Assembly (NCBI GenBank): GCA_017552475.1 | Contig: JAFZPY010000126.1 | Location: forward strand, 126 to 64,125 | DNA length: 64,000 nucleotides | From: Bacteroidales bacterium | Lineage (GTDB): Bacteria; Bacteroidota; Bacteroidia; Bacteroidales; UBA932 | Reading direction: 5' to 3' | In this document: positions 10,224 through 39,414 of the stretch, one piece after another | Numbering within the stretch: the stretch's first letter is position 1 | How the letters are laid out: each line of letters opens with the position of its first letter | Program-made: the position numbers and the translations under genes | The notes under the pieces: generated by a model | Told to the model about the DNA's origin: nothing | The model's database searches: none | What the model saw: the letters and a program-made list of their open reading frames with translations, nothing else

Positions 10224-10224
10224 C

Positions 10225-11659: not shown

Positions 11660-11667
11660 TGTGTTGA

Positions 11668-12257: not shown

Positions 12258-12263
12258 TTTTTG

Positions 12264-13423: not shown

Positions 13424-13480
13424 ACGGAAGACAAATATATGGAAAAATCACTAAATTTGCACTCCTGACACACGTCTCAA

Positions 13481-13946: not shown

Positions 13947-14258
13947 ATGGAATACCGAATAGATAACTACTCCAGGAATCCCAAGTTTTTGCTGGACAGG
14001 TTAGCCGCTAATTGCAAGGCCCGGAGGCTGGAGAAAGGATACAGCAGAAGAACCCTGTCAGATTTGACCGGCGTTCCTGCACCCACCATCGAACGATTTG
14101 AGAGGACCGGGAAAATTTCGCTGGAGTCCTTTTGCCAGATCGCCATTCTGTTTGACTATTTTGACGAGGTAGCCGCCATACTGAACCATACCAAATACTC
14201 CACCTCGCAGGAGCTGGAAAGCATTAATAAAAACCATAACAGAAAGAACGGACGCTAA
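13947..14258 (+). CDS. XRE-family HTH antitoxin (HipB-like)
   Basis: KARRLEKGYSRRTLSDLTGVPAPTIERFERTGKISL; TAATG coupling to hipA. Confidence 0.85.
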   Translation: MEYRIDNYSRNPKFLLDRLAANCKARRLEKGYSRRTLSDLTGVPAPTIERFERTGKISLESFCQIAILFDYFDEVAAILNHTKYSTSQELESINKNHNRKNGR

Positions 14259-16310: not shown

Positions 16311-17702
16311 TTAACTTTTCACAAGCTTGTACGCAGGAACCAGAAGTTTCATGATAACCCATGCAACAAGATAGGCAAGACCGCAAAAACAGAATAAAAT
16401 GAAGTAGCCGGCCGGCTTTCCTTCAAATCCAAGGAAGGAAAAAGCGGAGCCCTGCACACCAGCCCAGGTAAACAAGTTACCAGCCACCTTCTGGACAATC
16501 ATGGAGCCTATCCCTCCGGCCATGGTCCCAATTCCCGTTATGGAGGCCACGGCGCTGCGAGGGAACATATCTCCAATGGTTGAATAAATATTGGCGCTCC
16601 AGGCCTGATGTCCCGCCCCGGCGAAGCCAATGAGCACCGCCGGCCACCAGGGGCTATACATTCCAAGAGGCTGTGCTGCAAGGGCGACAAGTGGGAAAAA
16701 TGCAAAAAGCAGCATTGCAATCATACGGCCGGCATAGGGATGCATTCCTTTCTTTTCAACAAAGAACTTGGGAAGATAGCCTCCGAAAAGCGAGACCACG
16801 GTCACAATGACGTACAAGGTAAATATGAGGCCCTGCCCCAGGGAGGACGATGCAGGCGCATCAAACTGATCCTGGAAGTAGGCCGGTGCCCAGAACAGGA
16901 AGAACCACCATACGCCATCAGTAAGGAACTTGCCGACAATAAAACTCCAGGTCTGCCTGTACATGAAACACCTGAAGAATGGAACAGGTCTCTCTTCAAC
17001 AGGCAATTCCGCCGGATCCGAATCATCCTGACGGATATACTCCAGCTCGGCTTTGTTTACATGCCTGCTCTTTTCCGGCTTGTCATACGCAAACTGCCAC
17101 AAGAACATCCAAAGAAATCCCAGAGCGCCAATGATGATGAACGCCCACTCCCAACCAAGCTGCTTTGCCAATGGCGGAATCATAAGAGGGGCGGACAATG
17201 CGCCCACGGAGGCACCGGCATTGAAAACGGACGTCGCAAAAGCCCGGTCCTTTTTCGGGAAATACTCCGCTGTGGTCTTAATGGCTGCAGGGAAGTTACC
17301 GCTCTCACCCAAAGCCAGAATGCCACGGCACAAGAGAAACAGATAAACGCTGACCGTTGACGCGGCCAAAGCCCCACGGGCAATCCAGTCCGTCGCAACG
17401 CCACATCCGGCATGCAGCACAGCGCCGAATGACCATACGCCAATCGCGATAAGATATCCTTTCCTGGTCCCCATCCAGTCCACGAACTTCCCTGCAAACA
17501 GGCTGAACAGTGCATAGAAGATTGAGAACAGGGCGGTAACAGTACCGTAGTCGGCGTCGGTCCACCCAAAATGCGGGGCAATGAATTCCTTGTAGGTCAG
17601 AGACAATACCTGACGGTCAAGGTAATTGACCGTAGTCGCCACAAAAAGTAACGAACAAATCCACCACCGCCAGTTGGTCATCAGTTTCTGTTGTGTACTC
17701 AT
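16311..17702 (-). CDS. exuT: MFS hexuronate transporter
   Basis: RWWICSLLFVATTVNYLDRQ, GESGNFPAAIK, KFLTDGVWWFFLFW. Confidence 0.9.
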   Translation of the reverse strand: MSTQQKLMTNWRWWICSLLFVATTVNYLDRQVLSLTYKEFIAPHFGWTDADYGTVTALFSIFYALFSLFAGKFVDWMGTRKGYLIAIGVWSFGAVLHAGCGVATDWIARGALAASTVSVYLFLLCRGILALGESGNFPAAIKTTAEYFPKKDRAFATSVFNAGASVGALSAPLMIPPLAKQLGWEWAFIIIGALGFLWMFLWQFAYDKPEKSRHVNKAELEYIRQDDSDPAELPVEERPVPFFRCFMYRQTWSFIVGKFLTDGVWWFFLFWAPAYFQDQFDAPASSSLGQGLIFTLYVIVTVVSLFGGYLPKFFVEKKGMHPYAGRMIAMLLFAFFPLVALAAQPLGMYSPWWPAVLIGFAGAGHQAWSANIYSTIGDMFPRSAVASITGIGTMAGGIGSMIVQKVAGNLFTWAGVQGSAFSFLGFEGKPAGYFILFCFCGLAYLVAWVIMKLLVPAYKLVKS

Positions 17703-17705
17703 TGG

Positions 17706-19112
17706 TTAGAAATCAAAGTAGCGCTTAGCGTTATTGTAGCAAATATCTTCCACCATCCTGCCGATGAAGTCCAGCTGGGATTCCGGGAGTTTCCCATCTT
17801 CAATGTCTTTTCCGAGCATGTCACAAAGTATGCGTCGGAAGTACTCATGACGGGGATAGGAAATAAAACTGCGGCTGTCAGTGAGCATTCCCACGAAGCG
17901 GGAGAGAAGGCCCAGACTGCTCAGGGAATCCATCTGGCGACGCATTCCCACCTCGTGGTCCATAAACCACCAGCCGCTGCCGAACTGCATTTTCCCGGGG
18001 ACAGAGCCATCATTGAACGTATAAGCCATAGCCATCATGACATCATTATCCTTGGGATTAAGACAATAAAGAATGGTCCTGGCAAGTTTGTTCTCCTGTA
18101 CCAGGCGGTCAAAGAATCGGTGTCCTGCCGATGCAATATTCAAATCATGAATAGCGTCAAATCCAGTGTCGGCACCAATCTCGGCAAACATCCGGGTATT
18201 GTTATTTCGTATGGCGCCAATGTGGAATTGCTGTGCCCACCCGGCCTCGGCATCCATTACAGCCTGATCGTGAAGGAATGCACTGCGGAACTTTTCCAGT
18301 TCGCCGGCATCGGGAGCGACTCCTTGCAACACCTTCACAAAAATGGATTCTATTTCGGACTCTTTATATGGGGCCGAACAGAAGTTCTCAAGGCCATGGT
18401 CAGACAGTTTACAGCCGTTGGCGGCAAAATAGTCATGGCGCTTCTGAAGGGCCTCACGAAGCTCAGAGTAAGAGCCAATGGACATTCCGGCGGCCTCTTC
18501 CAGACGCCGGATATACTGCCTGTAAGATGACGGACGCTCAACAGCCATGGCACAGTCCGGGCGCCAGGCAGGAATAATCCTGGTGCCAAAAGGATTTGCC
18601 GCAATCATCTTGTGATAGCGCAGGTCATCAGCCGGATCGTCGGTGGTACACACGACTTCCACGTTAAACTTGCGGATGAGCGCCTGTCCCCGGAACCCCG
18701 GCAATGCAAGTTTTGCATTGCATTCCTCAAATATTTCCCGCGCAGTAGAAGGGCCCAGCAGTTTATCAATCCCGAATACCCTTGAAAGCTCAAGATGCGT
18801 CCAATGATACAGCGGGTTACGCATAGTATAGGGAACTGTTTCGGCCCATTTCTCAAACTTCTCCCAGGAAGACCTGCGACCGGTGATGTACTCCTCCGGG
18901 ACCCCATTAGCCCTCATTGCACGCCACTTATAATGATCCCCTCCAAGCCAAAGTTCCGTGATATCACGGAACCGGATGTTCTCCGCAATTTGACGGGGCG
19001 ACAGATGGCAATGATAATCAATGACCGGCATCTTCTCCGCATGCTCATGATAAAGCGTGCGGGCCGTCTCCGTCCCGAGCATGAAATCAGGGTTGATGAA
19101 GGCCATATCCAT
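17706..19112 (-). CDS. uxaC: Glucuronate isomerase
   Basis: IDYHCHL, GGDHYKWRAMR, CTTDDP, GWWF, GMLTDSRSF.SY.RHEYFRR. Confidence 0.97.
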   Translation of the reverse strand: MDMAFINPDFMLGTETARTLYHEHAEKMPVIDYHCHLSPRQIAENIRFRDITELWLGGDHYKWRAMRANGVPEEYITGRRSSWEKFEKWAETVPYTMRNPLYHWTHLELSRVFGIDKLLGPSTAREIFEECNAKLALPGFRGQALIRKFNVEVVCTTDDPADDLRYHKMIAANPFGTRIIPAWRPDCAMAVERPSSYRQYIRRLEEAAGMSIGSYSELREALQKRHDYFAANGCKLSDHGLENFCSAPYKESEIESIFVKVLQGVAPDAGELEKFRSAFLHDQAVMDAEAGWAQQFHIGAIRNNNTRMFAEIGADTGFDAIHDLNIASAGHRFFDRLVQENKLARTILYCLNPKDNDVMMAMAYTFNDGSVPGKMQFGSGWWFMDHEVGMRRQMDSLSSLGLLSRFVGMLTDSRSFISYPRHEYFRRILCDMLGKDIEDGKLPESQLDFIGRMVEDICYNNAKRYFDF

Positions 19113-19774
19113 TATGCTTTAAACCAACCGATACACTTCCTGCAGAGAACGGATATGGAATCCCAATCCCCCGCCTGTATTATTTCCTTAGGGAAAAGCT
19201 TTGAGCCCATACCGACGGCCGTCACACCTGAACGCGCCCAGGCTGCCAGATTCTCCTCAGTGGGCTCGACGGCTCCGGTCGCCATCAGCATGGCCCAAGG
19301 AAGCGGAGCCAGGACATTTTTCACAAAGTCCGGTCCGCCGACCGTGCCTGCCGGAAAGACTTTTATCAAATCACAGCCGAGCTCCATGGCATGTACAATC
19401 TCCGTCACCGTACCACAACCGGGACTGTACGATACGCCACGGCGATTGGCCAGGGCAGCCACGTCTTCGACCATGCATGGAGAAACCAGGAAATCGGCTC
19501 CCATCTGTAAATACAGCGAGGCGGTATGCGCATCCAGAATAGTCCCGGCTCCCAATGCCATCCCGGGGCAATCCTTCCGTACAAACGCCGCCACCTCATC
19601 AAACACCTTATGGCATCCGTCTCCGCGGTTCGTAAACTCAAAAGCCCGGATGCCGCCGTCATAGCAGGCTCTCACCACCTTTCTGGTGAGTTCCACATCA
19701 TTATTGCAGAACACCGGAACAATGCCGGTATTGCGAATGATATCAAGTGTATCTATCTTACTGAATTTTGCCAT
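19112..19774 (-). CDS. eda: KDPG/KHG aldolase
   Basis: FEFTNRG, GAGTILD, KVFPA, MATGAV. Confidence 0.93.
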   Translation of the reverse strand: MAKFSKIDTLDIIRNTGIVPVFCNNDVELTRKVVRACYDGGIRAFEFTNRGDGCHKVFDEVAAFVRKDCPGMALGAGTILDAHTASLYLQMGADFLVSPCMVEDVAALANRRGVSYSPGCGTVTEIVHAMELGCDLIKVFPAGTVGGPDFVKNVLAPLPWAMLMATGAVEPTEENLAAWARSGVTAVGMGSKLFPKEIIQAGDWDSISVLCRKCIGWFKA

Positions 19775-19776
19775 AA

Positions 19777-20814
19777 TTATCGTGAAACGCGGCCGGATCC
19801 GCCGTTTTTAATAAGTTTTTCCACTTCAGCCGTTGTAACCCGGTTGTAGTCACCAAAAACAGTATGTTTAAGAGCCGATGCAGCCGCTGCGAATTCTATT
19901 GCTTCCTGATCGGTATCATATGTTAACAATCCATACAGAAGCCCTCCCATAAAGGAATCTCCAGCGCCCACACGGTCCACTATATGGGTAATATCATAAC
20001 GACGCGACTGCCACAAAGTCGAGCCGTCATACAAAACACCTCCCCACGTGTTGTGGCTGGCATTGATGCTGCCGCGCAGAGTAACAGCCACCTTGCGGCA
20101 ACGCGGGAAGCGCTCCATAAGCTGACGGCATACGCTGACAAAAGCACTCTGGTCAATCTCGCCTCCGGCCTTTTCCGCATCAAAGCCCTCCGGCTTAATG
20201 CCAAATTCTTTCTCGGCATCCTCTTCGTTGCCAAGAATAAGATCGCAACCGGCTACAAGGGAAGGCATAACCTCCGATGCGTTCTTTCCATAACGCCATA
20301 GCTTCTCACGGTAGTTAAGGTCGCAGGAAACTTTCACGCCCATTTCATTGGCTGCCTGAATAGCCTCCCTGCACGCGTCCGCAGCCCCTTGAGACAGGGC
20401 CGCTGTGATACCCGTCCAGTGAAACCAGTCCGCGCCTTCAAGCACTTTGCGCCAATCTATCATGCCCGGGAGGATTTCTGAAATAGCGCTATGGGCGCGA
20501 TCATATACCACCTTGGAGCCACGGGCGACAGCGCCGTTCTCCAGATAATAAATTCCCATGCGTTCCCCACCCCGGATAATGCCGTCAACGTTGACGCCTA
20601 GGGCTTTAAGCTCCCCCACGCACGTCTCGGCAATTTCATTTTGGGGAAGACGGGTGACAAAATGGGCCTCAACTCCATAATTAGCGAGAGAAACGGCCAC
20701 GTTGGCCTCTCCTCCGCCAAAATTCACATCAAACTGCCGGGCCTGGGAGAAGCGCAAATACTCCGGAGGAGAAAGCCGGAGCATTACCTCACCGAATGTA
20801 ACTACTTTTGACAT
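19777..20814 (-). CDS. kdgK: 2-keto-3-deoxygluconate kinase (PfkB family)
   Basis: [33 protein letters not shown]. Confidence 0.93.
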
Positions 20815-21977
20815 AATATCTTTGAAAGAGCATATTCAATACCTCTCAGCTCGGCAAGCGAGCGGAGACGTCCATAACAAGAATATCCGGGATTGGATTT
20901 CCGGCCCAGGTCATCGCACATCTGGTGGCCATGATCAGGTCGAAGATATATATTGAACCTGCGCCTTTGCTCCACTTCAAGCATGGCCTTCATCATATCG
21001 CAGACAGAGACATCTCCTTCAAGCAGATTCGCTTCATAGAAATTGCCGTCAGCGTCACGCTTGGTGGAGCGTAGATGCACAAAGTCTATGCGGTCGCCGA
21101 ATTCGCGCATCATGGCCGGGCAGTCATTGTCAGCCCGTACGCCAAAAGAGCCCGTACACAGATTCAGGCCGTTGGCCGGGCTGGGGACAGCAGCGACGAG
21201 ACGGCGGAAATCTTCAGCCGTGGACATGATACGGGGAAGACCCAGAATAGGGTATGGAGGGTCATCCGGATGAATCACCATACGTGAACCCACCTCCTCG
21301 CAGACCGGGCATACCTGCTGCAGAAAGAAAATGAGATTGTCGCGCAGCTGTTCTGCATCTATGTCTTTATAGCGATCCAGTTCCTTCTGGAACTGTTCCA
21401 GAGTGAAGCTCTCCTCGCTGCCGGGGAGTCCGGCAATCATATTACGGGTCAGGACCTGTATTTCAGAGGGAGACATCGCCTGATGACGGGCCTTGGCACG
21501 TGCAATTTCTTCCGAAGTATAGTCATCCCCGGCGCCGGGCCTTTTCAGAATATACAGGTCGAAAGCCATGAAGGCGGCTTTCTCAAAGCGGAGGGCCAGG
21601 GAGCCGTCGGGCATCTCGTATGAAAGATCCGTACGGGTCCAGTCCAGAACCGGCATGAAGTTATAGGTTATGACATGAATGTCACATGCTGCAAGGTTCC
21701 GGACAGATTGTTTGTAATTTTCGATATAATGGAGGTAATTCCCTTCGCGGGTTTTGATGTGCTCATGAACAGGGACGCTCTCGACCACGCTCCATACAAG
21801 GCCTTTGGAAGCACATTCATCCTTGCGTTTCTGTATTTCATCCACGGTCCACACTTCCCCGTTGGGAATATGGTGAAGAGCAGTCACAATATCAGTCACT
21901 CCCGCCTGCCGGATATTTTCCAGCTTCACGGGGTCGCCTGGGCCATACCAGCGCCAGCTTTGTTTCATCATGTACAT
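20802..21977 (-). CDS. uxuA: Mannonate dehydratase
   Basis: [30 protein letters not shown]. Confidence 0.97.
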
Positions 21978-21982
21978 AAGCC

Positions 21983-22801
21983 TTAGATGCTGAATGTGTT
22001 AAACCCGCCGTCAACGGGAGCGATAGTGCCAGTGACGCCCTTGGAAGCGTCGGAGGCCAGATAATGAAGAGTCCCTGTCAGCTCATCTGGTTCAAGGAAG
22101 CGGCCGAAGGGGGTATGGGAAAGAATCTTGTGGGACCGGTCGGTGAGAGAGCCGTCAGGATTGGTGAGAAGGCTTCTGTTCTGGTTGGTCAGGAGAAAAC
22201 CCGGAGCGATGGCGTTGACGCGGATTCCTTCCCCGAATTTAAGAGCAAGCTCACCGGAAAGCCACTGCGTCCAGCTGGCCATACCGGCTTTGGCTATGCC
22301 GTACCCGGCGACGCGAGTGAGCGGGCGGAAAGACGACATGGAGCAGAAATTGATTATGACTCCTTTGCCCTGAGCCACCATTGGTCCTATGAAAACCTTT
22401 GTTGGGATGACCGTTCCGAAAATATTCAGCTCACAGACGCGCTTCATTGCATCTATATCCAGGTCGGCGATGGTCTGGTCCGGCTGCACGTTGGCCGGGC
22501 CCATGTTGCCCCCGGCGGCATTCATAAGAATGTCAATGGTGCCATAGGCTTTGATGATATCACGGAGATTATCCTTCAGCACTTCCTCATCAAGCACATT
22601 GGTCGGGAGGAACAATGCCTCTCCCCCGTCTGCTTTAATCTCCCCGACCAGTTTCTCTCCAATCCCGCGGGCGCGCTCCAAATCCAGGAGAACGACTTTA
22701 CAGCCCTGGGAAGCAAAATATCTTACAATGGTAGCACCCAGAACTCCACAAGCTCCGGTCATCACCACCACCTTGCCTTTGATGTCAAAGAGTTGATTCA
22801 T
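21983..22801 (-). CDS. uxuB: D-mannonate oxidoreductase (SDR family)
   Basis: [33 protein letters not shown]; adjacent to uxuA. Confidence 0.85.
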
Positions 22802-22802
22802 A

Positions 22803-25349
22803 TCATTTTTTCATCTTTAATTGCAGATGCCTCCGGTTCTTGACCAGATAGACCATGCATCCGCTGTTGTCTTCACGGAGAAGCGGCAAATCCACTTTTT
22901 CCTCCCGATCCAGCCATAACTCGGCATCCACGCCTTCAGGAATATCCAGCGAAATGATGCTACGGCCTTTTTTTCTCAGAGATTTGAAATGGACAGGCCC
23001 TTTCAGGGTCCAGACATCAAACTCCGCCTGCTCCAGGCCGGCCGGTTGCGGCCGGATTTTAATCAGGGAACCGTCGGAGGCAAGCGGAACAATTCCGGCT
23101 ATTCCCTGGCTAAGTGCAATCAGCGGCATGACGGCGCAATGACTCCACTGCGAAGTATTGTCCGGCTGCGCGTCGAAAAACTCTTCCAATGTGTTATTCT
23201 CCCAGACGGAGCGCATGCCTCCCCAGCGTGTGCGAAGGCTTTCAAGGACCACATCCATCCTTCCGTACTTCGCAAGGGCCCACATTGGCCACACAAGGTT
23301 GCACGGATAGGAAACGCCCAGATTTTCAGGCTGGTTCACCAGAATATCCAGACATTCCGTATACTCACCGCCGGGGCACATGTCATACAGGAGGGCCGTT
23401 GCAAGCGACCGGTCGCAGTAGCGGTCTCCCCCGTCCTCTTCCCTCCAGGGAAGATTGAGTACAAAGACTTTCTTGTCGCTGTCCCAGAAGCGCCGTACGC
23501 AGGCCTCAAGGATGTCATCGCCATAAGAAAGCGCATCTTCCTTAAGCTCCGGAGCGCCAAACACATCGCAGAGCGGCGCCAATGCATAACGACACATGGC
23601 AGCCACGTAGAGGTTCAGGGCAAGCTGCTTTTCACGGTCATTGCGATATGCTTTCTGATCCATGTAGACCGAACACATGCCCAGCCCTACGGATGGAATC
23701 AGGTGTTCTTCCCGGTCAGTCAGCGTCTTGAGATAATTGTAGAACTTGACCAGCCTCGGAAAGACCTCCATCAGGTTTTCCTTTTTCCCAGTGTACATGT
23801 AATAGTTGTAAACATCGAAGACAAATCCGACGCTATGATCGAGAATCGGGCCCCAGGCCGTCAATTGCAACTGCCGTTCAAAAATTCTTACCATCCTGTC
23901 CCACCCAGGCCAGCTGTCCATAAAGAAGCCTTCCAGGGAGCTGCCCTGGCTAAAGGTATTGATATACCGGGCAAGCAGGCTGTCCGGGCGGAAGAACTGA
24001 TACAGGGCATGTATCTGATGACCGCCATCACCGCTATACTGCTGGCGCTCACGGGCCATACCGTCAACAATGGTTTCCTGTGCGCAGTTATTTATTGTAT
24101 TTACGGTAGCGTCTATCACCCTCTGAAGGGTGTCGTCAGACACCTTGATCTCAGGCCGCACCGTCCAGGGATAGGTTCTCCTCCGCATACCGATGTCCGA
24201 GAGGGTGACCGGTCGGTCAAAGCCCCTGATAAGGAATTGTACCCAGCGATAACTTTCGAAATCGAAAGTCTCAAAGCGGTTGATTCCCTCGCGGCAGATA
24301 AAGCGCGTCCACGAATGGAAATGCGAATTCAGGATGGCGGCATGCCCGGGTTCGTGCGCTTCATGTACCAGCATCTCGATGATGGTACCCTCCGGCGCAT
24401 CTATTGTGAAATAGGGAAAGCCTACACCCTGTTCGTCGAATGCAAAAACATACGAGACCGTCTTCCCTCCCTGCGGTTCAATCACAAATACGTCATCCTC
24501 CATACCAGGCTCCAGCACCTTCCACTCATCAACGGAATAAGCAGTCTCATCCATTGCCAAGTCAAAGAAATCCTCAACCGGGACCTTCCAGTCCACCAGC
24601 ATTGTCTCCCTTAGTTTTGGATGACTTATCTTTTCTTCTCTGAGCAAGGGAACGGAGCGCTGCCGCAATTCGACATCGTCGCGGTTATTACGGCTCTCCC
24701 AAAGGTAGTCGCGGTACTGATTGCAGACAGAGGGTTTGTCTCCCCTTCCGTACGCACGTGCAGAAAGCCATTGGCCGTCCATGGCATAATCCGGATCAGT
24801 CCAGCCTAAAGGATAGGTTCTTGCATCGAAGCACTCCTGAAGGGAACGCAGGAACCATCTCTTGTACTTGCCAGGCTCCCAGCTGCGGGCCACTTGACAG
24901 TGCCAGGAAGTATCTGTAACTATATTCTCACCAGCTACATTTACATTCATCAACAGACCCGGCTTACCAATAGGATCGGTCCCGTCACCGCTGCCGTAGA
25001 AACATACTTCGACCGCAATCGTATTGCCCCCTACCCTGAGATAGGGAGCAATATCGACAGGGTCTGCCTCCTGCCATCTTGGGTCGGATGGGGCGGGCCC
25101 CCACTGTACCCTCTCCCCGTTGACGAAGAGACGATACCGGCTGTCCGCCACAATCCATCCCCGGGCCTCATCTGGCAATACTCTAACCTCAAAATCCTTT
25201 CGAAAGAGTACGAAGGTGTTCTGGGGAGTCCTCGTCGAGGGATACCAAATCCATCTGGCGGGCTGAAGGTCCAGCACATCACCGTAGTCTTTCGCGTGCA
25301 GAGCGGCACACAAAAGCAGCGAGGCGGCAAGAGTGAAGAGTTTTCTCAC
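22803..25349 (-). CDS. Alpha-L-rhamnosidase-like GH78 family protein (exported)
   Basis: Rhamnosidase N-domain (ADSRYRLFVNG), DGMARERQQYSGD, SQWSHC. Confidence 0.75.
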   Translation of the reverse strand: MRKLFTLAASLLLCAALHAKDYGDVLDLQPARWIWYPSTRTPQNTFVLFRKDFEVRVLPDEARGWIVADSRYRLFVNGERVQWGPAPSDPRWQEADPVDIAPYLRVGGNTIAVEVCFYGSGDGTDPIGKPGLLMNVNVAGENIVTDTSWHCQVARSWEPGKYKRWFLRSLQECFDARTYPLGWTDPDYAMDGQWLSARAYGRGDKPSVCNQYRDYLWESRNNRDDVELRQRSVPLLREEKISHPKLRETMLVDWKVPVEDFFDLAMDETAYSVDEWKVLEPGMEDDVFVIEPQGGKTVSYVFAFDEQGVGFPYFTIDAPEGTIIEMLVHEAHEPGHAAILNSHFHSWTRFICREGINRFETFDFESYRWVQFLIRGFDRPVTLSDIGMRRRTYPWTVRPEIKVSDDTLQRVIDATVNTINNCAQETIVDGMARERQQYSGDGGHQIHALYQFFRPDSLLARYINTFSQGSSLEGFFMDSWPGWDRMVRIFERQLQLTAWGPILDHSVGFVFDVYNYYMYTGKKENLMEVFPRLVKFYNYLKTLTDREEHLIPSVGLGMCSVYMDQKAYRNDREKQLALNLYVAAMCRYALAPLCDVFGAPELKEDALSYGDDILEACVRRFWDSDKKVFVLNLPWREEDGGDRYCDRSLATALLYDMCPGGEYTECLDILVNQPENLGVSYPCNLVWPMWALAKYGRMDVVLESLRTRWGGMRSVWENNTLEEFFDAQPDNTSQWSHCAVMPLIALSQGIAGIVPLASDGSLIKIRPQPAGLEQAEFDVWTLKGPVHFKSLRKKGRSIISLDIPEGVDAELWLDREEKVDLPLLREDNSGCMVYLVKNRRHLQLKMKK

Positions 25350-25361
25350 GGTCTGACAGGT

Positions 25362-26840: not shown

Positions 26841-26852
26841 GATGCTGATTAA

Positions 26853-29800
26853 TTAAAATGTGAGACTGGCGCCAAAAATGAGACGACGGCTCAGAGGGTA
26901 TGTGCTGTAGTCCACACCCAGACGGGTAGTGCCGTTGCCGTTGGTATTCGATTCAGGCGTATAGCCTATGTAGTCAGTGAAGATATACACGTTATCCATA
27001 GCCGCATAGACCTTGGCGCCCTTCATATTCACCTTCTTCAGAAGACTTGCGGGAAGGGTGTAGCTGAGGGTAATGTTCTTTATGCGGAGATACGTGGTAC
27101 TGAAAATACGGTTGTCGTCCGCAACACCGCCGCCGGACTGGCCGAAAGCGAATGGAGTCTTGCCGTCCCAGCTCATGTCGATTCCATGCTGCCTGCAGTA
27201 TTCCACAGGTACAGGGTTCTCGCCGGCACCATATTTCGCCTCGAAGTCAGGCTTGTAGCTGGTGAGCCAGTGACGGTAGGAGTTGCGTCCGGAGTTGCCC
27301 AGATTGTTGTGACGGCCACCGATATACATGATCTCGCCGCCGACCTGTCCCTGAACCAGAACGCTCAGCTCAAAGTTTTTATAGGCGAACTTATTGGTGA
27401 TACCATACACGAGGTCAGGGAAGTTATCCCCGCATACCACCATGTCATCGGTCGTAATCTTGCCGTCATTGTTGGTATCCTGATACCTGTAGTTGCCTTC
27501 TTCCTGACCGGCGAGAATAGGGACGGTAGCATTGCCGTTGCTGTCGAAGCAATCAGATGTAAGAATGCCTATGGTCTTGTAGGCGAGGAACTGGCTGAGG
27601 GGTTTGCCCACCTCGGTGCGATACTTCTGGCTCCAGCTGGTCACGTCAAGGACCTGCTGACCGCCCATGTCGGTCACTTTGTTGGTATTGTGCGAAAGGT
27701 TCACGTTGGATGTCCAGCTGAAATCGCCGCTGACGATGTTGGCAGAAGTCAGGTCAAACTCAAAACCTGAATTGCGCACGCTGCCGATATTGGTCGTGAA
27801 AGAGCTGAAACCGGTGGTGTACGGGATGGGCTTGGAGAAGAGAAGGTCTTCGGTGTCGTTGATATAGTAATCAACGCTCAGCTGGAGACGGTTCTTGAAA
27901 GCAGCGAAATCAAAACCGAAGTTCAGGGATTTGGTAGCTTCCCACTTCAGGTCTTCGTTAGGCATGTTGGACGGAGCGGCGCCGGAGACCAGATTGCCGT
28001 TCCAAACGGTGCTATAAGAGCCCAGGGCTGCAACTGACGGATAGTTGCTTCCCATGTTGTCATTACCGGCCTTACCCCAGGAGGCGCGTACCTTGAGGAG
28101 GGACAGCCAGCTTATGTTCTTCATGAAGTCCTCTTTGTTAATCTTCCAGCCCGCAGATACGGAAGGGAAGGTTCCCCATTTGTGGTTTTTGCCGAAGCGG
28201 GAAGAGCCGTCGCGGCGGACACTGGCAGTAAAAAGATACTTCTCGTCATAGTTGTAGCTGAAACGGCCGAAGAAAGAAGCATTCGAATAAGCGTTTTTGG
28301 ACGTCGATGCGACAGTGGGCGTAGGTGCCAGATTGAGAGTTGTAAGATTCTCATAAGTCCAGCCACTTGCCTCTGCGCTGATTACGAAGTAGTTCTGTTT
28401 CTCCGCGCTTTGACCAAGGAGCACATTGAAGGCGTGCTTCCCGATGGTCTTGTCGTAGGTGAGGGTATTCTGCAGGGTCCAGTTGTCAATACGGTAGGAA
28501 TCACTGCTGCCCTCTGATTTATAGCCGTTGCGGTTGATGTTGCCGGGAAGGAAGTATTCGTATTTTCTTCCGTCGTAGGTGTTGCTGTACAGGGTTTTGA
28601 ACGTGAGGCCGTCAATGATTTCATATTCACCCCAAAGGGCGGCATTGATACGGGTATACTCGGTCTGGTCCGTGATCTGGACAAGTCTCAGATACGGGCT
28701 GGGGAATATTTCGCCCACCTCGGTCGCCGAAGGGATGCCGTTATCGCGGGTGGCGGCATCACGGTCTACCAGCGGTGAATGGATGATTGCGTGGTGCAGG
28801 GCGGATTCCTTGCCGCCACCGCCTGCCATGTTGTGTACTGAACGGGATACGCCCAGGTTCAGGCCCACGCGCAGCTTCTTGCTGATATTCAGGGATGCAT
28901 TGACACGGCCGTTGGTCTTGGTGTAATCCGATCCCACAAGGATACCCTGCTGATCCAGATAACCGGCTGACATGAAGATAGACCCCATATCTCCCTTAGT
29001 GGAGGCAGAGACCTGATAACTCTGGATGGGCGCAGTACGCAGCACTTCAGACTGCCAGTCGGTAAAGGTGTCCTTGGTGAGCCACCATGAAGGAATCTGA
29101 TCGGCGATGGCACGGGACGACATCGGATCGCTCATGCTGCCTCCCTTGCGAAGGTGATTAAGGTTGCGGATATACATCTGCTGGGCTACATACTCATAGC
29201 CGTTCTGCAGATCCATGGTCCTCTCAGGGCTCTGCACGCCATAATATGCATCAAAAGTAACGGTGGGTTTACCGGCGCCCTGTTTGGTCTCGATAAGGAT
29301 AACGCCGCTGGCACCACGGGAACCATAGATTGCCGAAGAGGACGCATCCTTCAGGATCTGGATGGAGGCGATATCTGAAGGGTTCAGGTCGCTCATGTTA
29401 TCACGGGGAACGCCGTCAATCACATAGAGCGGATTACTGGTTCCATTGATAGTATTGATACCACGGATACGGATTGAGAGGTCCTCACCGGGCTGGCCGC
29501 CGGAGCTGGCAGAAGAATAAACGCCGGCCAGCTGGCCCTGAAAAGCCTCGCCGATGGTAGCGATCGGACGGTCTTTCATTGCGTCGGGGGAGATTTTTGC
29601 GACAGAGCCCGTCAGGTTTACCTTCTTCACGCTGCCGTAGCCCACAACCACGACTTCGCCAAGAAGTTCGCTGTCCTGTTTCATCACAAGCGTGATGCTG
29701 CCGGGACCCGTGACGGTCTGTGTCTCAGTGATGAAGCCCAGGAAGGAAAACTCCAGTGTACTGCCCTTGGCGGCAGTGAGCGTCCATTTTCCTTCGGCAT

Positions 29801-30035
29801 CCGTAGTAGTACCATTTGCAGTACCGACAACTGTTACGTATGCTCCGCTGACGGGAACACCGTTTTCATCAAGTACTTGACCGGATACCTTGACGACAGC
29901 GTCCTGCTGTTCGTTGGATGTGGTCAGCATGGATGTGCTGGCTGAGGCTGCATTAGCCGCCAGAAGGAGCGAGGAAACCATCATGCATACAGCAAGGGCC
30001 TTTCCTCCGATCGGAATAGTTTTAATGAAATGCAT
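26853..30035 (-). CDS. susC: SusC/RagA TonB-dependent transporter
   Basis: VVVGYG, PLYVIDG, ILKDASSSAIYGSRGASGVILIETK, C-terminal F. Confidence 0.96.
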   Translation of the reverse strand: MHFIKTIPIGGKALAVCMMVSSLLLAANAASASTSMLTTSNEQQDAVVKVSGQVLDENGVPVSGAYVTVVGTANGTTTDAEGKWTLTAAKGSTLEFSFLGFITETQTVTGPGSITLVMKQDSELLGEVVVVGYGSVKKVNLTGSVAKISPDAMKDRPIATIGEAFQGQLAGVYSSASSGGQPGEDLSIRIRGINTINGTSNPLYVIDGVPRDNMSDLNPSDIASIQILKDASSSAIYGSRGASGVILIETKQGAGKPTVTFDAYYGVQSPERTMDLQNGYEYVAQQMYIRNLNHLRKGGSMSDPMSSRAIADQIPSWWLTKDTFTDWQSEVLRTAPIQSYQVSASTKGDMGSIFMSAGYLDQQGILVGSDYTKTNGRVNASLNISKKLRVGLNLGVSRSVHNMAGGGGKESALHHAIIHSPLVDRDAATRDNGIPSATEVGEIFPSPYLRLVQITDQTEYTRINAALWGEYEIIDGLTFKTLYSNTYDGRKYEYFLPGNINRNGYKSEGSSDSYRIDNWTLQNTLTYDKTIGKHAFNVLLGQSAEKQNYFVISAEASGWTYENLTTLNLAPTPTVASTSKNAYSNASFFGRFSYNYDEKYLFTASVRRDGSSRFGKNHKWGTFPSVSAGWKINKEDFMKNISWLSLLKVRASWGKAGNDNMGSNYPSVAALGSYSTVWNGNLVSGAAPSNMPNEDLKWEATKSLNFGFDFAAFKNRLQLSVDYYINDTEDLLFSKPIPYTTGFSSFTTNIGSVRNSGFEFDLTSANIVSGDFSWTSNVNLSHNTNKVTDMGGQQVLDVTSWSQKYRTEVGKPLSQFLAYKTIGILTSDCFDSNGNATVPILAGQEEGNYRYQDTNNDGKITTDDMVVCGDNFPDLVYGITNKFAYKNFELSVLVQGQVGGEIMYIGGRHNNLGNSGRNSYRHWLTSYKPDFEAKYGAGENPVPVEYCRQHGIDMSWDGKTPFAFGQSGGGVADDNRIFSTTYLRIKNITLSYTLPASLLKKVNMKGAKVYAAMDNVYIFTDYIGYTPESNTNGNGTTRLGVDYSTYPLSRRLIFGASLTF

Positions 30036-30069
30036 AACCGATAATTGTAAGTGTGATTAATATAGGTTG

Positions 30070-33000
30070 TTAGTTTTCCGTAACGTCCTCAACGTCCACA
30101 TAGACATATTTGGGACGAAAATCCAGATCCTTCAGGATGAAATTCACATTGCGGAAAGTCAGTCCGCGAACGTGTCTGGCAAAAATGCCATATGCAGGCA
30201 GTTCTCCGAACATGGAGAACTCCGGATAGCTGTCAATCTTCTCCGGAATAGAGTCCAGCCTCCACAATGGCACATAGGCCATACCTTTGCTGGCCCGCCC
30301 GGGACAGCGGATCTCGATATTTTCCAAAACCACGTTTTCTACGCAATGGCCGGGGATTCCGGTAATTGAGCTTGGGATTGGGTTATGAAAGAAAGACAGG
30401 GACGGTCCCCTCATGTCATAGTCACTGTCCGGACGGCCGAAGGGAATATCCACGTACAGATTCTTTATAGTGATGTTCCTGAGTGTTCCCGGAGCATTTC
30501 CGGCGCGGTGTCCCAGACGGATAAAGAAGGCATTCCCCGTGTTTTCGGCATGGATATTATCCACCAGCACGCTATCAATATGACCACCGTCCACGCTTTC
30601 TATAGCAATGGCCGAACGGTAAGTGTCCTTCACCCGGATATCCCGGATGACGATGTTGCGGAAGCCGCCCCAGGAAGCCGTTCCGAATTTGACGGCGCTG
30701 GCGCTGCTGATCACCTCGCAGTCCGAGACCTCCACGTCATCGCAGCAGGAGTCGGCGTGATAGGATTTCAGGCAGATGCCGTCGTCGGCCGAATTGATGC
30801 GGCAATGCGTGATAAGTACATGCTTGCCGTCCGTCACGTCAATGCCGTCATTGTTCCAATATGCCCTGTTCTCAAAATCAAGATTACGGAGCGTAAGATA
30901 GCTGCACTTGTCGAAAGACAATCCCCAGCAGGCGCTGTTCTTCAGCTTCAGCCCATCAATCAGGATGTGGTCTGAGTCCGAGAAGAAAAACAGTTTGGGG
31001 CGAGCTGTCTCATTGGGCCTGTTAAGACGCTGCGTGTAATTGGGATCCACACGTTCGCCTGTGTGATGCAGGCTGTCAATGGCCAGGGCAAGTTCCCGGC
31101 CGTTCCCGTCTATCAGGCCTTCACCAATAATACGTATATCCCGGGCATGATCAGCGACCAGCAGGGCCAGCGCAGAATTATCTCCGCCTTTGGTTTTCTG
31201 GACGGCACGATAGTCGTAAGGGTTCGTGCTTCCCAGAATGGAGGCGTCTTTTTCAATCCGCAGAGTCACATTCGATTTGAGCTCGACAGTACCGGTGAGA
31301 TACTTTCCTTTCTGGAAAGCCAACGTTCCGCCCTGCTCAAGGGAATGGCAATAGTCCACAGCTTTCTGGATAGCATCCGTATTCATGGTCACGCCATCTC
31401 CGACAATGCCCATATCGCCGGCCAGGACGATGTTCTGTCCCCAGGTCTCATTGGGCTCGGGGCCCATCACCAATGTCAGCGTACCGCCGTTGATGATGTC
31501 ATCATGGGAGATCCAGCAACGTGAATAAGGATTCCCGTTAAAGGTGGCAGACTGAATATAAACGTTCTGCTCCGAATTATTCTTAGCTATGATGGTAAAA
31601 TCCTGACCATTACCAAGATGCATCGTCACCTTATCGAAAGACGGGCTTCCTATCTGATAGGCCGGCAATCCCGGGCAGACCGGATAGAAGCCGATGGCGC
31701 TGAAAATATACCATGCCGAAAGCTGGCCGCAGTCTTCATTGCCGGGCAGGCCGCCAAGCGTGGACTTGAATTTATTCCTGACAAGTTCCCTGACCGTTTT
31801 CTGCGTCTTCCACGGTGCGCCGGTGTAATTATACAGGTAAGGCGCGTGCATGGAGAACTCGTCGCCGACATAATAGAAATCGCCGTCAAAGAATTCATCC
31901 AGCTGATCTTCCAGAACTTTCTTTCCCCCAAGGAAATCAATCAGTCCCGGCACATCATGGGGAACGAAGAAAGTGATGTTTCTGTAATAGGTCTCCCTGT
32001 CACGATCCGTACCCCTGGCCCATGTGCTCACCGCCTGATCCTTCGGATCACGCCAGGTGCCGTCGCTGTTTCGCCCCCTGATCAAGTTTGTCTGAGGGTC
32101 CAGGACATTGCGGTAGTTTTTGCTCCGGCTCATGAGCATATCATAGAGATCATCCCAGCCCATCTCTCCGGCCATCTGGGCAATGCACCAGTCGTCATAG
32201 GCAAACTCCATCGTGCGGATGCAGGATTCCTTATACTTATCCGTGGGAACATATCCGAGACGGATATAATCTTCTATTCCCACACGGGCCGCATATATGC
32301 CGTGTGAAGCCGTTGTAGCATTCTTCATCATGGCCTCCAGCGCCTTATCCGTGTCATAGCCCCTTACGCCTTTGACATATGCGTCTGCAATGACGGCGTC
32401 GCCGTGGGTCCCGGTCATCGTATTGGAATATCCCGGGCTGGGCCATTTGGGAATCCATCCACCTTCATCATAACTGTTGAGAAGCCCCGTTATCATCTCA
32501 TTGACTTTCTCCGGGGCAAGAAGCACCAGCAGCGGATGCAATGCACGGAACGTATCCCAAAGGGAATAGTCAGTGTACATGATGCCCGGCATCACCTGGC
32601 CATTGTAGGCACTATAGTGATACCCGTCCTCGGTAAGGTCCCGCGGCAGCAGTGCAATGCGCTGCATGGCCGTATAGAAAATCTTCTTGTTATCCTCAGT
32701 AGTCTCCACCTCTATGCGGCCCACGCTTTTGTTCCACACGTCCCGTCCCTGACGTACGAGTTCGTCGAATCCCTTGTCACCAATTTCCCTTTCCAGATTC
32801 TTCCTGGCTTGTTCCATGCTTATAAATGAGGTTCCAAGCCTGACCTCAGCAGGTTCTCCGCCTCTGGTTTTAAAGAAAACCTGAAGAGCCGACGCCACGG
32901 AGCCGTCAAGTGCCATCCGTTTCAATTCCTCTTCGGACCGGGGCTCCGGTTCCAGGCAGTTGAAGCGCAGCGTCGCCAGTCTGGTTCTCTCGGTGTATTC

Positions 33001-35007
33001 CATCACTATCTCGCAGCGTTCACCTGCCGCAAGCACCTTGGAATACAGATCCTGTGCGGGCCGGTGTGTCTTGTGGGAGTCAATCACCTTTTCGCCGTTG
33101 ACATACAGCTTCACATCGTCATCGGACGTAACATAGAACACGTGCTTGCCCGAGGTCCTTGCCGTGAGCGTGCCCGCATATCTTACTCCGAAATAATCCT
33201 CATTCACGCCCGGAGCAGGCGCTCCTTCCCACTCAAAGTTCACATCGGCATCTGCGCAAGTCGCGACAGGGCTGCCCTCAAACTGAGTATTGTTGAAGAA
33301 TTCCCCTCTGAAACCCTCCTTAAACAGGGCTGTATTATCGGCAAAAACAGGCTCCGGAACAACGGCACAGGAGGTAAGCGGCTGATTAATCTTAGCCACA
33401 AAATAACAGGCGAAATCAGGGCCCGTATATCCCTGGTTGCCCACACGGCCCGCATTTGTAATATAGCCTTCGACCTCATTAAGCTCCGGCAGCACATGGA
33501 AATAATTTCCATATTCGCTGCGGGCGTTGTCAAATACCAAGCCAGCATTCTCTGTCGCGGGATATGTAAAGCGCAACATGCCTGACGAGGATACGCCGGT
33601 AATCTCAGACTTGACATCATAGTCTTCCAGATCTACACAGTAGTAATACGGAGTGGCGCTTTCATTGTCATGTGAATAAGATGAAGCCCTTTCGTGCGGC
33701 CGCACTTTATCCTTGCCAATGACTGGCATTATGGTGAACGTACCATAGTCGGACATGGCCGCGCCATTGGGATAATGGCTGGCACGGAACCCCTGTATGG
33801 CCGTCTGATCAGAGAAATAGCACCTATCGGTCTTCGCAGTCTGCGGTGACAACTGCACCATTGCATTGGGGTATCCGACGCCGGGATAGACGAAACCCAT
33901 CGGTTCCTCCGGTCCCGACAGTGTGGACTGTCCCCTCCAGACCTGAGTTCCAATTCGGGTATCCACATAATCTACAGGCATCTTTTTGCCGCCGTCACCA
34001 TGATTGAACGAAATAATGACCATACCCACGACGAGCAGGGCCATGCCTCCGGCCATCTTCTTTATGGATGCCCTGGGCGCCCCTTTCCATTCACCAAGCA
34101 TAAGCCCGGCGACGCCACTGGCAACTATGGCGGTAGACTGCATGATAGCCCACCCGACGGATGCGGCATAATGTCCCATACGGCTGCAACCCATGCCATA
34201 GAAAAGCATGCTTCCATACCAGATCAGTCCGCCAAGGGCAGCCCAGAGATAATTGCGCCAGGATGAGCCTTTGTAATTCTCTATAGTCCCGTTCCTGCGC
34301 ATCTGCACCAGACTCTGGATTGCGTTCACCAGAAAACCGGTCACAAAAACAATGGCCCAGGTCGCATTCGCGCTGTTGATGGGATCGGCACCAAGTTCGA
34401 CGGCCTTTTGCTGAAGAGGCTCTCCCATGACAAAGCCGAAGTTTATCATGGGACTGAACACACCGCCCAGAATACAAATCAGAAGGCCCATGGCAAATTT
34501 CTTTCCTTTTGCGCCACCTTCTGACTGGCACTTCCCCTTGCCGGCATTGGCAAAAAGAATGATTCCGCCCAACGTCACGGCCACACCTATGGGAATATTG
34601 ACGTACTGCGAAGTGAACAGCGCCCCTGGATTGTCAACAAGGAACGGAGCGACTGTGCCAATGACATTTATCAGTCCCTGCATGATTGGAATGGCCAGAG
34701 ACACGCCCAGGTAGTCAATACCTTTGCCAAACAGCAAAGCGCCGAGTCCCCAGATCAGGCCAAAGACAGCGACGACAGCCGTCACGGAAGGGTGCGCCGC
34801 ATAGACATCGGTCACATGCGGAATGGTAAGTGCTACGGCAATGCCTGGACAAACGATGAGAGCTATGACGCTCCATATAAGCCAGTTGTTTTCCCAAGCC
34901 CATTTGCGGTTGCGCCCGAACGGTGTTGAGAACACGCCCGAGAAACATCCTGCCATGAGGACCAGTGCAAGGCCCATGTAAAACCCGTTTTCCATCATAT
35001 CAGACAT
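30070..35007 (-). CDS. Triple fusion: RhaT-type sugar/H+ symporter + GH92 alpha-mannosidase-like (PA14 insertion) + GH28
   Basis: N-terminal multi-TM RhaT signature (KWAWENNWLIWS...LGEWKG); GH92 from ~33981 (YVDTRIGT, SLWDTFRA, PGNEDCGQLSAW); PA14 at ~33310-32950; GH28 from ~31435 (WNNDGID, ADDGICLKS). True start may be 34998 (ATGA coupling). Confidence 0.85.
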   Translation of the reverse strand: MSDMMENGFYMGLALVLMAGCFSGVFSTPFGRNRKWAWENNWLIWSVIALIVCPGIAVALTIPHVTDVYAAHPSVTAVVAVFGLIWGLGALLFGKGIDYLGVSLAIPIMQGLINVIGTVAPFLVDNPGALFTSQYVNIPIGVAVTLGGIILFANAGKGKCQSEGGAKGKKFAMGLLICILGGVFSPMINFGFVMGEPLQQKAVELGADPINSANATWAIVFVTGFLVNAIQSLVQMRRNGTIENYKGSSWRNYLWAALGGLIWYGSMLFYGMGCSRMGHYAASVGWAIMQSTAIVASGVAGLMLGEWKGAPRASIKKMAGGMALLVVGMVIISFNHGDGGKKMPVDYVDTRIGTQVWRGQSTLSGPEEPMGFVYPGVGYPNAMVQLSPQTAKTDRCYFSDQTAIQGFRASHYPNGAAMSDYGTFTIMPVIGKDKVRPHERASSYSHDNESATPYYYCVDLEDYDVKSEITGVSSSGMLRFTYPATENAGLVFDNARSEYGNYFHVLPELNEVEGYITNAGRVGNQGYTGPDFACYFVAKINQPLTSCAVVPEPVFADNTALFKEGFRGEFFNNTQFEGSPVATCADADVNFEWEGAPAPGVNEDYFGVRYAGTLTARTSGKHVFYVTSDDDVKLYVNGEKVIDSHKTHRPAQDLYSKVLAAGERCEIVMEYTERTRLATLRFNCLEPEPRSEEELKRMALDGSVASALQVFFKTRGGEPAEVRLGTSFISMEQARKNLEREIGDKGFDELVRQGRDVWNKSVGRIEVETTEDNKKIFYTAMQRIALLPRDLTEDGYHYSAYNGQVMPGIMYTDYSLWDTFRALHPLLVLLAPEKVNEMITGLLNSYDEGGWIPKWPSPGYSNTMTGTHGDAVIADAYVKGVRGYDTDKALEAMMKNATTASHGIYAARVGIEDYIRLGYVPTDKYKESCIRTMEFAYDDWCIAQMAGEMGWDDLYDMLMSRSKNYRNVLDPQTNLIRGRNSDGTWRDPKDQAVSTWARGTDRDRETYYRNITFFVPHDVPGLIDFLGGKKVLEDQLDEFFDGDFYYVGDEFSMHAPYLYNYTGAPWKTQKTVRELVRNKFKSTLGGLPGNEDCGQLSAWYIFSAIGFYPVCPGLPAYQIGSPSFDKVTMHLGNGQDFTIIAKNNSEQNVYIQSATFNGNPYSRCWISHDDIINGGTLTLVMGPEPNETWGQNIVLAGDMGIVGDGVTMNTDAIQKAVDYCHSLEQGGTLAFQKGKYLTGTVELKSNVTLRIEKDASILGSTNPYDYRAVQKTKGGDNSALALLVADHARDIRIIGEGLIDGNGRELALAIDSLHHTGERVDPNYTQRLNRPNETARPKLFFFSDSDHILIDGLKLKNSACWGLSFDKCSYLTLRNLDFENRAYWNNDGIDVTDGKHVLITHCRINSADDGICLKSYHADSCCDDVEVSDCEVISSASAVKFGTASWGGFRNIVIRDIRVKDTYRSAIAIESVDGGHIDSVLVDNIHAENTGNAFFIRLGHRAGNAPGTLRNITIKNLYVDIPFGRPDSDYDMRGPSLSFFHNPIPSSITGIPGHCVENVVLENIEIRCPGRASKGMAYVPLWRLDSIPEKIDSYPEFSMFGELPAYGIFARHVRGLTFRNVNFILKDLDFRPKYVYVDVEDVTEN

Positions 35008-35411
35008 TTCAAGTTATTGACAGCCTCCTGCAGCTCTTTCCGCTGACTGGGAGAAAGATCGTAGAAATCAAAGTCAGAAATATGCGTATTGCTCTTCTCG
35101 ACAATGCAGACACTGCTTCCTTGAGACATCGCGATTTTGTGCCATGTCTCCCTGGGAATATTGTATATCACCCCGGGGACCATGTCAACGAGGTCATAAC
35201 TGATCTTACCGTCAATCGTTGCCGCAATCAGGACGGCATGTCCCCTGAGCAGGACGAAGACCTCATCCGTCTCGTGGTGTATATCTAGTTTCACGATGCT
35301 CTCCAATGCCTCGGCGGGGGCATAATTCAGAAAGGCTGCCTGCCATCCGTCAGAAATGAAGGTTGGATCATAGCCTGGCGCATCATAACGGTATGATTGA
35401 ATCAGTTTCAT
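34995..35411 (-). CDS. Cupin-fold protein
   Basis: DIHHETDEVFVLLRG...YNIPRETWH metal-binding cupin motifs. Confidence 0.8.
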   Translation of the reverse strand: MKLIQSYRYDAPGYDPTFISDGWQAAFLNYAPAEALESIVKLDIHHETDEVFVLLRGHAVLIAATIDGKISYDLVDMVPGVIYNIPRETWHKIAMSQGSSVCIVEKSNTHISDFDFYDLSPSQRKELQEAVNNLKCLI

Positions 35412-35428
35412 AAGTATCGTATATTATG

Positions 35429-38436: not shown

Positions 38437-38457
38437 TGTGGATAGTTTTCTTCACTG

Positions 38458-38537
38458 CAAATCTATGGTTTTTTAGAACTAGTTCAACATCACATATTTA
38501 TTGAAGAAATGATATTCTTTACCCTATTCCGACATCG
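38458..38537 (-). promoter_or_regulatory. Promoter (-7 TAGATTTG) with upstream 19-bp candidate AraC site
   Basis: TAnnTTTG at 38465-38458; TTACCCTATTCCGACATCG at 38519-38537 shared with 44755-44773. Confidence 0.65.
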
Positions 38538-38544
38538 GCCGGAA

Positions 38545-39408: not shown

Positions 39409-39414
39409 AAATGT

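Follow-up and report, generated by a model that had tools for sequence, protein, structure and literature searches.

Can a sugar transporter carry two glycoside hydrolases across the inner membrane on its own C-terminus, and how would such a protein work? This question is raised by a gene at positions 30070-35007 on the (-) strand of a 64,000-nt stretch of DNA from an uncultured Bacteroidales bacterium of the herbivore gut (the window, within which all coordinates are given). The gene joins a RhaT-family symporter, a glycoside hydrolase of family 92 (GH92) with a PA14 insert, and a GH28 hydrolase. Our answer, to which we assign a probability of about 0.62, is that this is a genuine fusion in which the tenth transmembrane helix (TM10) of the transporter serves both as the export signal and as the permanent anchor of periplasmic GH92/PA14-GH28 enzymes, with trimming of sugars taking place beside the symporter.

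One reading frame for a transporter and two hydrolases

Translation of 30070-35007 gave a single frame of 1645 amino acids (aa) with no internal stop, as the original prediction had stated, and a Pfam and NCBIfam domain search bore out the predicted RhaT-GH92/PA14-GH28 architecture. The Pfam matches, all of which exceeded the gathering scores, were RhaT (residues 5-332), Glyco_hydro_92N (347-551), PA14 (564-679), and Glyco_hydro_92 (733-1183), followed by a GH28/pectate-lyase-like beta-helix at residues 1198-1502. The parts of the gene are as follows.

34006..35007 (-), RhaT-family sugar/H+ symporter domain (drug/metabolite transporter [DMT] superfamily), residues 1-334 (PF06379)
33976..34005 (-), linker 1, residues 335-344, NHGDGGKKMP (11 fused forms aligned to the UBA1722 genes described below)
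33328..33975 (-), first part of the GH92 N-terminal beta-sandwich, residues 345-560 (PF17678, 145.6 bits)
32938..33327 (-), PA14 carbohydrate-binding-type insert in the GH92 N-domain, residues 561-690 (PF07691, 64.7 bits)
31450..32937 (-), remaining GH92 N-domain and (alpha/alpha)6 catalytic domain, residues 691-1186 (PF07971, 551 bits)
31420..31449 (-), linker 2, residues 1187-1196 (alignment and DNA)
30070..31419 (-), GH28 hydrolase domain (right-handed beta-helix), residues 1197-1645, with the stop codon (PF00295, PF12708, PF13229)

The coordinates, the two junctions, and the internal Met at 33981 had all been given correctly. Also right were the claims that the GH92 follows the last TM helix through a short linker without a signal peptide of its own and that the GH28 comes directly after the GH92. 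Only the 10 residues of linker 1 separate TM10 from the conserved GH92 start VDYVDTRIGT, which leaves no room for a signal peptide, and linker 2 is similarly short, at 5 to 13 residues among aligned homologues.

A word-indexed homologue search covering 5.8 billion proteins (ENA, Logan, NCBI, and JGI assemblies) returned six three-part homologues with 77-80% identity, three two-part homologues (RhaT-GH92/PA14; 1187-1194 aa), and one further truncated copy. The two-part forms were 68-78% identical across the shared region and 66-76% identical within the RhaT domain. Over all independent assemblies, the three-part homologues number six or seven. Full-length proteins at least 90% identical to the fusion had been assembled from several independent samples, and the matches on genome contigs came from rumen (RUG395, RUI263) and horse-faeces Bacteroidales metagenome-assembled genomes (MAGs). 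The public names of these homologues are "GH92 family glycosyl hydrolase" (NCBI record) or "hypothetical protein," so that the transporter has been missed.

When both junctions were checked in the homologues, as the prediction had proposed, they were in frame in eleven with diverged linkers. The linkers are the least conserved segment of the protein (45-73% identity) and yet the frame was never lost; linker 1, for instance, varied in sequence but was always in frame and 9-10 residues long. Codon alignments to three homologous loci showed saturated synonymous sites (dS, the synonymous substitution rate, was ∼2 or not computable). The ratio of nonsynonymous to synonymous substitution (dN/dS) ranged from about 0.05 to 0.11; by domain, it was 0.10 in RhaT, 0.09 in GH92N, 0.045 in the catalytic domain of GH92, and 0.064 in GH28. 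Low ratios despite this saturation mean that every domain, including the transporter, is under purifying selection within one frame. The gene is thus confirmed as a genuine, selected gene fusion and not an assembly artefact. Separate translation of the hydrolases from the internal Met (residue 343, codon 33981-33979) was considered and is unlikely because 10 of the 11 fused homologues have no Met there.

Probable export by the last transmembrane helix and origin of the fusion

Hydropathy analysis gave ten TM helices in the RhaT domain, and the distribution of charge around them was strongly one-sided. The Lys and Arg residues numbered 3, 1, 5, 4, and 4 on loops 1-2, 3-4, 5-6, 7-8, and 9-10, respectively (17 in total), compared to 0, 0, 0, 1, and 1 on the N-terminus and the remaining loops (2 in total). 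The bias was 16.1 versus 1.0 in eight fused homologues and 14.4 versus 3.8 in 125 free RhaT representatives, whose C-terminal tail after TM10 had a median length of 5 residues (n=125). An AlphaFold2 model of residues 1-1190 (mean pLDDT, 90.2; pTM, 0.77) contained ten long helices with a pLDDT of about 90 and a well-folded GH92 and PA14, with TM10 spanning about 22 residues, linker 1 at a pLDDT of about 69, and the beta strands of the GH92 N-domain at high pLDDT. No solved structure matched the RhaT domain by sequence.

The unfused relatives provide a second line of evidence. A good example is Bacteroidales UBA1722, which has a separate rhaT of 330 aa ending in ...VVFSLNS*, followed 10 nt past the stop codon by an 881-aa GH92/PA14 gene that begins with the lipoprotein signal MKHITKSFILLLPALAFGC. 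In the alignment, TM10 of the fusions falls exactly at this signal peptide, and the mature GH92 continues identically. Linker 1 lies where the unfused locus has a stop codon, the 10-nt spacer, and the signal peptide of the lipoprotein. Signal peptides were also found on the more distant stand-alone GH92/PA14 proteins P0012-P0014 and P0016, which are secreted and likewise contain the PA14 insert, as well as on secreted GH92-GH28 proteins and the nearest GH28-bearing proteins. P0011 is a GH92/PA14 lipoprotein fused to a GH78 rhamnosidase.

Because of the positive-inside bias, the signal peptides on unfused relatives, and the position of TM10 at the lipoprotein signal, both termini of the RhaT domain, and hence both hydrolases, are predicted to be periplasmic (N-out/C-out). 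The prediction is well supported by indirect evidence, and the original proposal that the transporter exports the hydrolases and tethers them in the periplasm gains support on the same three grounds. That proposal had also drawn on enterobacterial RhaT, which reportedly has ten TM helices with both termini periplasmic.

A maximum-likelihood tree of the GH92/PA14 region placed the stand-alone GH92/PA14 clade outside two supported inner groups. The first group contained the two-part P0010, the unfused UBA1722 protein, and P0011, and the second contained all three-part forms and the two-part P0008 and P0009. Since fused and unfused forms group together, the rhaT-GH92 fusion appears either to have arisen twice or to have been reversed once, and the GH28 either to have been gained once within the second group or to have disappeared from P0008 and P0009. 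SusC comes straight after the fusion gene in the two-part loci, which have no GH28 gene there. The fusion arose where rhaT stood next to and before a gene for a lipoprotein GH92/PA14. A short deletion took out the stop codon and the spacer together with the signal peptide of the lipoprotein, and the GH28 was either added in one sublineage or lost from the two-part forms. Here is a way for a polytopic membrane protein to acquire the exporting and anchoring role of a lipoprotein signal peptide.

P0011 (L027, 95-8788; 1738 aa), in which a GH92/PA14 lipoprotein is joined to a complete GH78 alpha-L-rhamnosidase, has as neighbours a different glycyl radical enzyme (GRE) with a GCTE loop (22% identical to the GRE described below), a GFO/IDH/MocA oxidoreductase, and a fucosidase. 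Its locus is a second link among the GH92/PA14 clade, deoxy-hexose enzymes, and GREs.

Genomic setting, proposed working, and alternatives

The fusion gene belongs to a series of operon-like genes that also encodes SusC/SusD, enzymes of a hexuronate pathway, and a GRE. The neighbouring genes, named by Pfam and NCBIfam, are as follows.

16311..24950 (-), GH78-like protein, mannonate oxidoreductase (short-chain dehydrogenase/reductase), UxuA, KdgK, Eda, UxaC, and major facilitator superfamily (MFS) transporter of galactonate/hexuronate type (Pfam, NCBIfam)
25362-26840 (-), SusD-like lipoprotein, 12 nt after SusC (Pfam)
26853-30035 (-), SusC-like TonB-dependent transporter, 34 nt downstream of the fusion stop (Pfam)
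34995-35411 (-), cupin-like open reading frame (ORF), 138 aa, overlapping the fusion start by 13 nt
35429-37570 (-), GRE, 713 aa (Pfam, NCBIfam)
37555-38436 (-), GRE activase (Pfam, NCBIfam)
38545-39408 (-), AraC regulator (Pfam, NCBIfam)
39415-44664 (-), lipoprotein GH92-CBM-GH92, 1749 aa (CBM, carbohydrate-binding module)

The intergenic gaps in the downstream hexuronate run are -13 to 5 nt, and a gap of 411 nt (24951-25361) separates SusD from the GH78-like gene. Co-oriented SusC/SusD and carbohydrate-active enzyme genes mark the fusion locus as a polysaccharide utilization locus (PUL). The order of the fusion followed by SusC/SusD recurs in the homologous loci L001, L003, and L006, and AraC, activase, and GRE lie upstream of rhaT(-GH92) in L003 and L006 (fused) and in the UBA1722 locus L007 (unfused). 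A promoter and terminator scan of 24500-39600 found no excess over shuffled sequence (16 vs 13.2; 16 vs 12.9), using a sigma-70 consensus that is unsuited to Bacteroidota.

The GRE belongs to no named subfamily; it scored 253 bits against TIGR01774, for which the cut-off is 678 bits, and its Cys loop is VGCNW and not GCxE. Together with the activase it always adjoins the rhaT-like gene, whether the locus is fused or unfused (the window, L003, L006, and L007), and it may determine what becomes of the imported sugar. The cupin-like ORF matched no Pfam family and only weakly matched a WbuC-type cupin (25 bits); it is present in the fused loci L003 and L006 and absent from the unfused UBA1722 locus. 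The 1749-aa lipoprotein consists of two complete GH92 units with a module between them that resembles domain III of polysaccharide lyase family 4 or a CBM. It is likewise fused in L006, whereas L003 and L007 have a single GH92 of ∼720-755 aa. A fusion of a His-phosphatase with NAGPA lies at 44982-47072. Because of this fusion and the double-GH92 lipoprotein, the lineage seems prone to fusing adjacent PUL genes. The six-hairpin GH78-like protein (715 aa; 22803-24950, (-)) has no signal peptide at the called start, and the 411-nt gap upstream of it is unusually long. The start call may be wrong, or this may be a cytoplasmic protein. Just past the sugar cluster, at 14258-15388 (+), is a gene for a kinase toxin of the HipA family (HipA_C and Couple_hipA).

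The transporter domain matched PF06379 with 105.2 bits (cut-off, 27) over profile positions 1-338 of 344, and its predicted membership in the RhaT family stands. The same cannot be said of rhamnose as its substrate. The nearest NCBIfam models are those of L-rhamnose/H+ symporters, but the domain fell below every equivalog cut-off (for the best model, NF010022, 288.9 bits compared to 369). In a same-genus genome, the canonical cluster GH78-rhaB-rhaA-rhaT-rhaD contains a RhaT that is only 30% identical to the fused domain, and RhaA was not found in the source genome (2.0 Mb, 151 contigs, 80% complete), in which the fused domain was the only RhaT detected. "RhaT" is therefore used here as a family name and not as a substrate assignment. 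The same-genus cluster, at L018 (G006:C10) 5464-13461, comprises GH78, an FGGY kinase, RhaA, RhaT, a class II aldolase, and GH3; none of its genes, and none of rhaA, rhaB, and rhaD, was found in the window.

The catalytic residues of both the GH92 and the GH28 appear from the alignments to have been kept intact. The GH92 scored 579 bits against TIGR01180 (NCBIfam; cut-off, 249.55), and its closest solved structure is BT3990 (PDB 2WVX), in which the acid is Glu533 and the bases are Asp644 and Asp642 (PMC10167667). The base Asp of the fusion, in GNEDCGQ, aligns directly with Asp644, and the Asn at the position of Asp642 is shared by most of the 121 sampled GH92s. The acid Glu is kept in ETYYRNITFFVPHD, where it sits 10 residues ahead of VPHD, a spacing also seen in BT3990 and in 94 of the 105 readable GH92s among those sampled; the gapped HMMER alignment misplaces the Glu. 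The fusion subfamily has the motif GDEF where most GH92s have GNEP, and so its specificity may differ. The GH28 scored 53.3 bits against PF00295 (cut-off, 22.9). Its nearest NCBIfam models, all below cut-off, are the exo-acting rhamnogalacturonidase BT4146 and galacturonidase types, and among solved structures 5OLP is the closest. All three-part forms, as well as related secreted GH28s, have retained the Asp triad WNNDGID...ADDGICLKS, and the usual GH28 His is replaced (SSASAVKFGT).

We propose that the protein works as follows. A ten-TM RhaT-family proton symporter would sit in the inner membrane with both termini periplasmic, and TM10 would both direct the export of about 1300 residues of periplasmic enzyme and anchor them permanently. 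These comprise a GH92/PA14 hydrolase of the exo-alpha-mannosidase type and, after it, a GH28 uronidase of exo type. SusC/SusD would bring in oligosaccharides, which would be trimmed on the outer face of the inner membrane. From there the neutral sugar would enter through the fused symporter and the uronic acid through the downstream MFS transporter, and the latter would be degraded by UxaC, UxuB, UxuA, KdgK, and Eda through 2-keto-3-deoxygluconate (KDG) to pyruvate and glyceraldehyde-3-phosphate (GAP). The conserved AraC-activase-GRE-rhaT(-GH92) block and its context support this three-step model of import, trimming, and uptake. Hydrolysis may be coupled to uptake, as was originally proposed, possibly kinetically, and the sugar transported may be a product of these enzymes; the chain presumably stays uncleaved.

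Several points weigh against this model. First, its substrate logic is incomplete, since a mannose-releasing GH92, a galacturonate-type GH28, a transporter named for rhamnose, and a pathway of the glucuronate branch (UxuA, UxuB) do not match one another. The uronic acid released by the GH28 is uncertain because the local pathway is of that branch. Yeast or fungal phosphomannan, glucuronomannan, the head groups of plant glycosylinositol phosphoceramides (Man-GlcA-inositol-P), and rhamnogalacturonan were weighed as substrates, and each had too little support. Second, the RhaT domain is below every equivalog cut-off. Third, the benefit of tethering within the periplasm is not obvious. Fourth, signal peptidase might cleave the chain, given the small residues at -3/-1 in some homologue linkers. 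Finally, on a rough estimate, the pTM of the structural model neither establishes nor argues against a fixed interface between transporter and hydrolases.

A stronger version of the model, which we consider doubtful, is that the protein is a "cleave-and-import" machine, in which active sites on a 10-residue tether lie near the transporter vestibule and the monosaccharide bypasses equilibration with the periplasm, an advantage so strong that the rhaT-GH92 fusion would have arisen or been retained in two sublineages independently. If true, this would be the first case in nature of glycoside hydrolysis covalently coupled to secondary active transport, and it may serve a new sugar pathway through the neighbouring atypical GRE.

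Among the alternatives, it is unlikely but arguable that the RhaT domain is a mere membrane anchor, or carries a sugar unrelated to the hydrolases (for example, one feeding the GRE), so that there is no coupling. The mismatch of family names, a "rhamnose" symporter with mannosidase and galacturonidase types, would be explained in this way, as would the constant position of the rhaT-like gene beside GRE, activase, and AraC, fused or not, and the failure to find RhaA in the 80% complete genome. However, a bare anchor would not need ten helices at a dN/dS of 0.10 with full-length profile coverage. Furthermore, rhaT and GH92/PA14 were adjacent already before the fusion, and the tree points to two sublineages in which the fusion may have originated or persisted.

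It is distinctly unlikely that TM10 is an internal cleavable signal, at which signal peptidase frees a soluble periplasmic GH92/PA14-GH28 and leaves an ordinary RhaT-like transporter; the fusion would then provide only export and 1:1 co-expression. Small residues lie at -3 and -1 after TM10 in some homologues (SHA-S in P0003 and P0006 and SNA-G in P0010, the hyphen marking the candidate site), and the cut would fall in the variable linker. There is, however, no conserved AXA-like site, and the sequence in the window is SFNHGDGGKK. The modelled length of TM10 exceeds the hydrophobic core of a typical signal peptide, and the ancestor was lipid-anchored and not soluble, which makes membrane retention the ancestral state.

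A cytoplasmic C-terminus, with the hydrolases acting intracellularly on imported oligosaccharide, is very improbable. Solved ten-TM DMT proteins such as YddG have cytoplasmic termini, and the hydrolases here have no separate signal peptide, both of which would fit. Opposed to this are the 17:2 positive-inside distribution, with a bias kept across the 125 free RhaTs, and the signal or lipoprotein signal peptide on every unfused relative of both hydrolase modules. A dependence of GH92 enzymes on Ca2+, as described in PMC12858847, also speaks against an intracellular GH92.

The weakest alternative, that an indel (for example, in the AAAAA run of the linker 1 DNA) merged two or three separate genes in a 151-contig MAG, is effectively refuted by a frame held in eleven homologues with different linker DNA, by the dN/dS values, by the absence of a signal peptide or start-codon context between domains, and by the same protein in several independent assemblies.

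Comparison with known systems

The architecture is a rare, new combination of known families. About 100 RhaT matches were found in 401 evenly sampled Bacteroidales genomes, and only the fused one was in a frame of >450 aa. In 36 same-genus genomes, there was only one other fusion (a two-part form in a horse MAG). No hydrolase was found on the best 150 RhaT cluster representatives from 1.8 billion proteins; the fused clade was itself missing from these hits, presumably because clustering had placed it under a representative other than a RhaT. One 694-aa protein among the hits, P0227, has an N-terminal protein-L-isoaspartate O-methyltransferase (PCMT) domain followed by a full RhaT domain; it is an odd fusion unless the gene call is a read-through. 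Full-text literature searches found no description of a transporter-glycosidase fusion and no relevant account of RhaT topology, and the original view that no transporter-GH92-GH28 architecture has been described holds for the searchable literature, with unannotated homologues existing in the databases.

In current PUL models, periplasmic glycosidases and inner-membrane permeases are separate, and their coupling is assumed to occur by diffusion. The UBA1722 locus is a natural unfused control, so that a kinetic or competitive advantage of hydrolysis beside uptake becomes testable. In addition, the consistent linkage to an uncharacterised GRE suggests an unknown sugar pathway in herbivore-gut Bacteroidales.

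Each module has known relatives. The RhaT symporters of E. coli and of Bacteroides rha operons (PF06379) share with the fusion the full-length profile, the ten TM helices, and the positive-inside pattern. In contrast, the fusion is only ∼30-42% identical to the nearest free RhaTs, lies in no rhaBAD cluster, and has a 1300-residue C-terminal extension where the free proteins end ∼5 residues past TM10. The nearest free RhaTs, P0128 and P0137, sit on short contigs that give little gene context. The two-domain GH92 fold and the acid/base spacing are shared with the Ca2+-dependent exo-alpha-mannosidases of GH92 such as BT3990 (2WVX), following the account of Zhu et al. 2010 given in PMC10167667, and the fusion differs from GH92s of this type in its PA14 insert, in having GDEF(S/Y)MH for GNEP, and in having a polytopic transporter in place of a signal peptide. 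With the exo-acting GH28s of Bacteroides pectin PULs (BT4146, BT4153, and BT4155; 5OLP), it shares the beta-helix and the NNDGID and DDG aspartates, whereas it scored 196 bits against a cut-off of 500 for their models and lacks the usual His. The pairing of GH92 with GH28 recurs in secreted proteins (P0015, P0017, and P0024-P0027). These and the GH92/PA14-GH78 protein P0011 carry the same modules in one exported chain but, unlike the fusion, have an ordinary signal peptide and no transporter.

The closest parallels in design come from other transporters. ABC importers of the OpuA and GlnPQ type have a substrate-binding domain fused to the permease. PepT1 and PepT2 have an extracellular domain that recruits trypsin to the transporter (PMC4597091). 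In these systems, as in the fusion, an extracytoplasmic module is placed at the translocator and the substrate is made or captured at the mouth of the transporter. However, their modules bind the substrate or recruit an enzyme noncovalently, whereas in the fusion two whole hydrolases are covalently joined to a secondary carrier.

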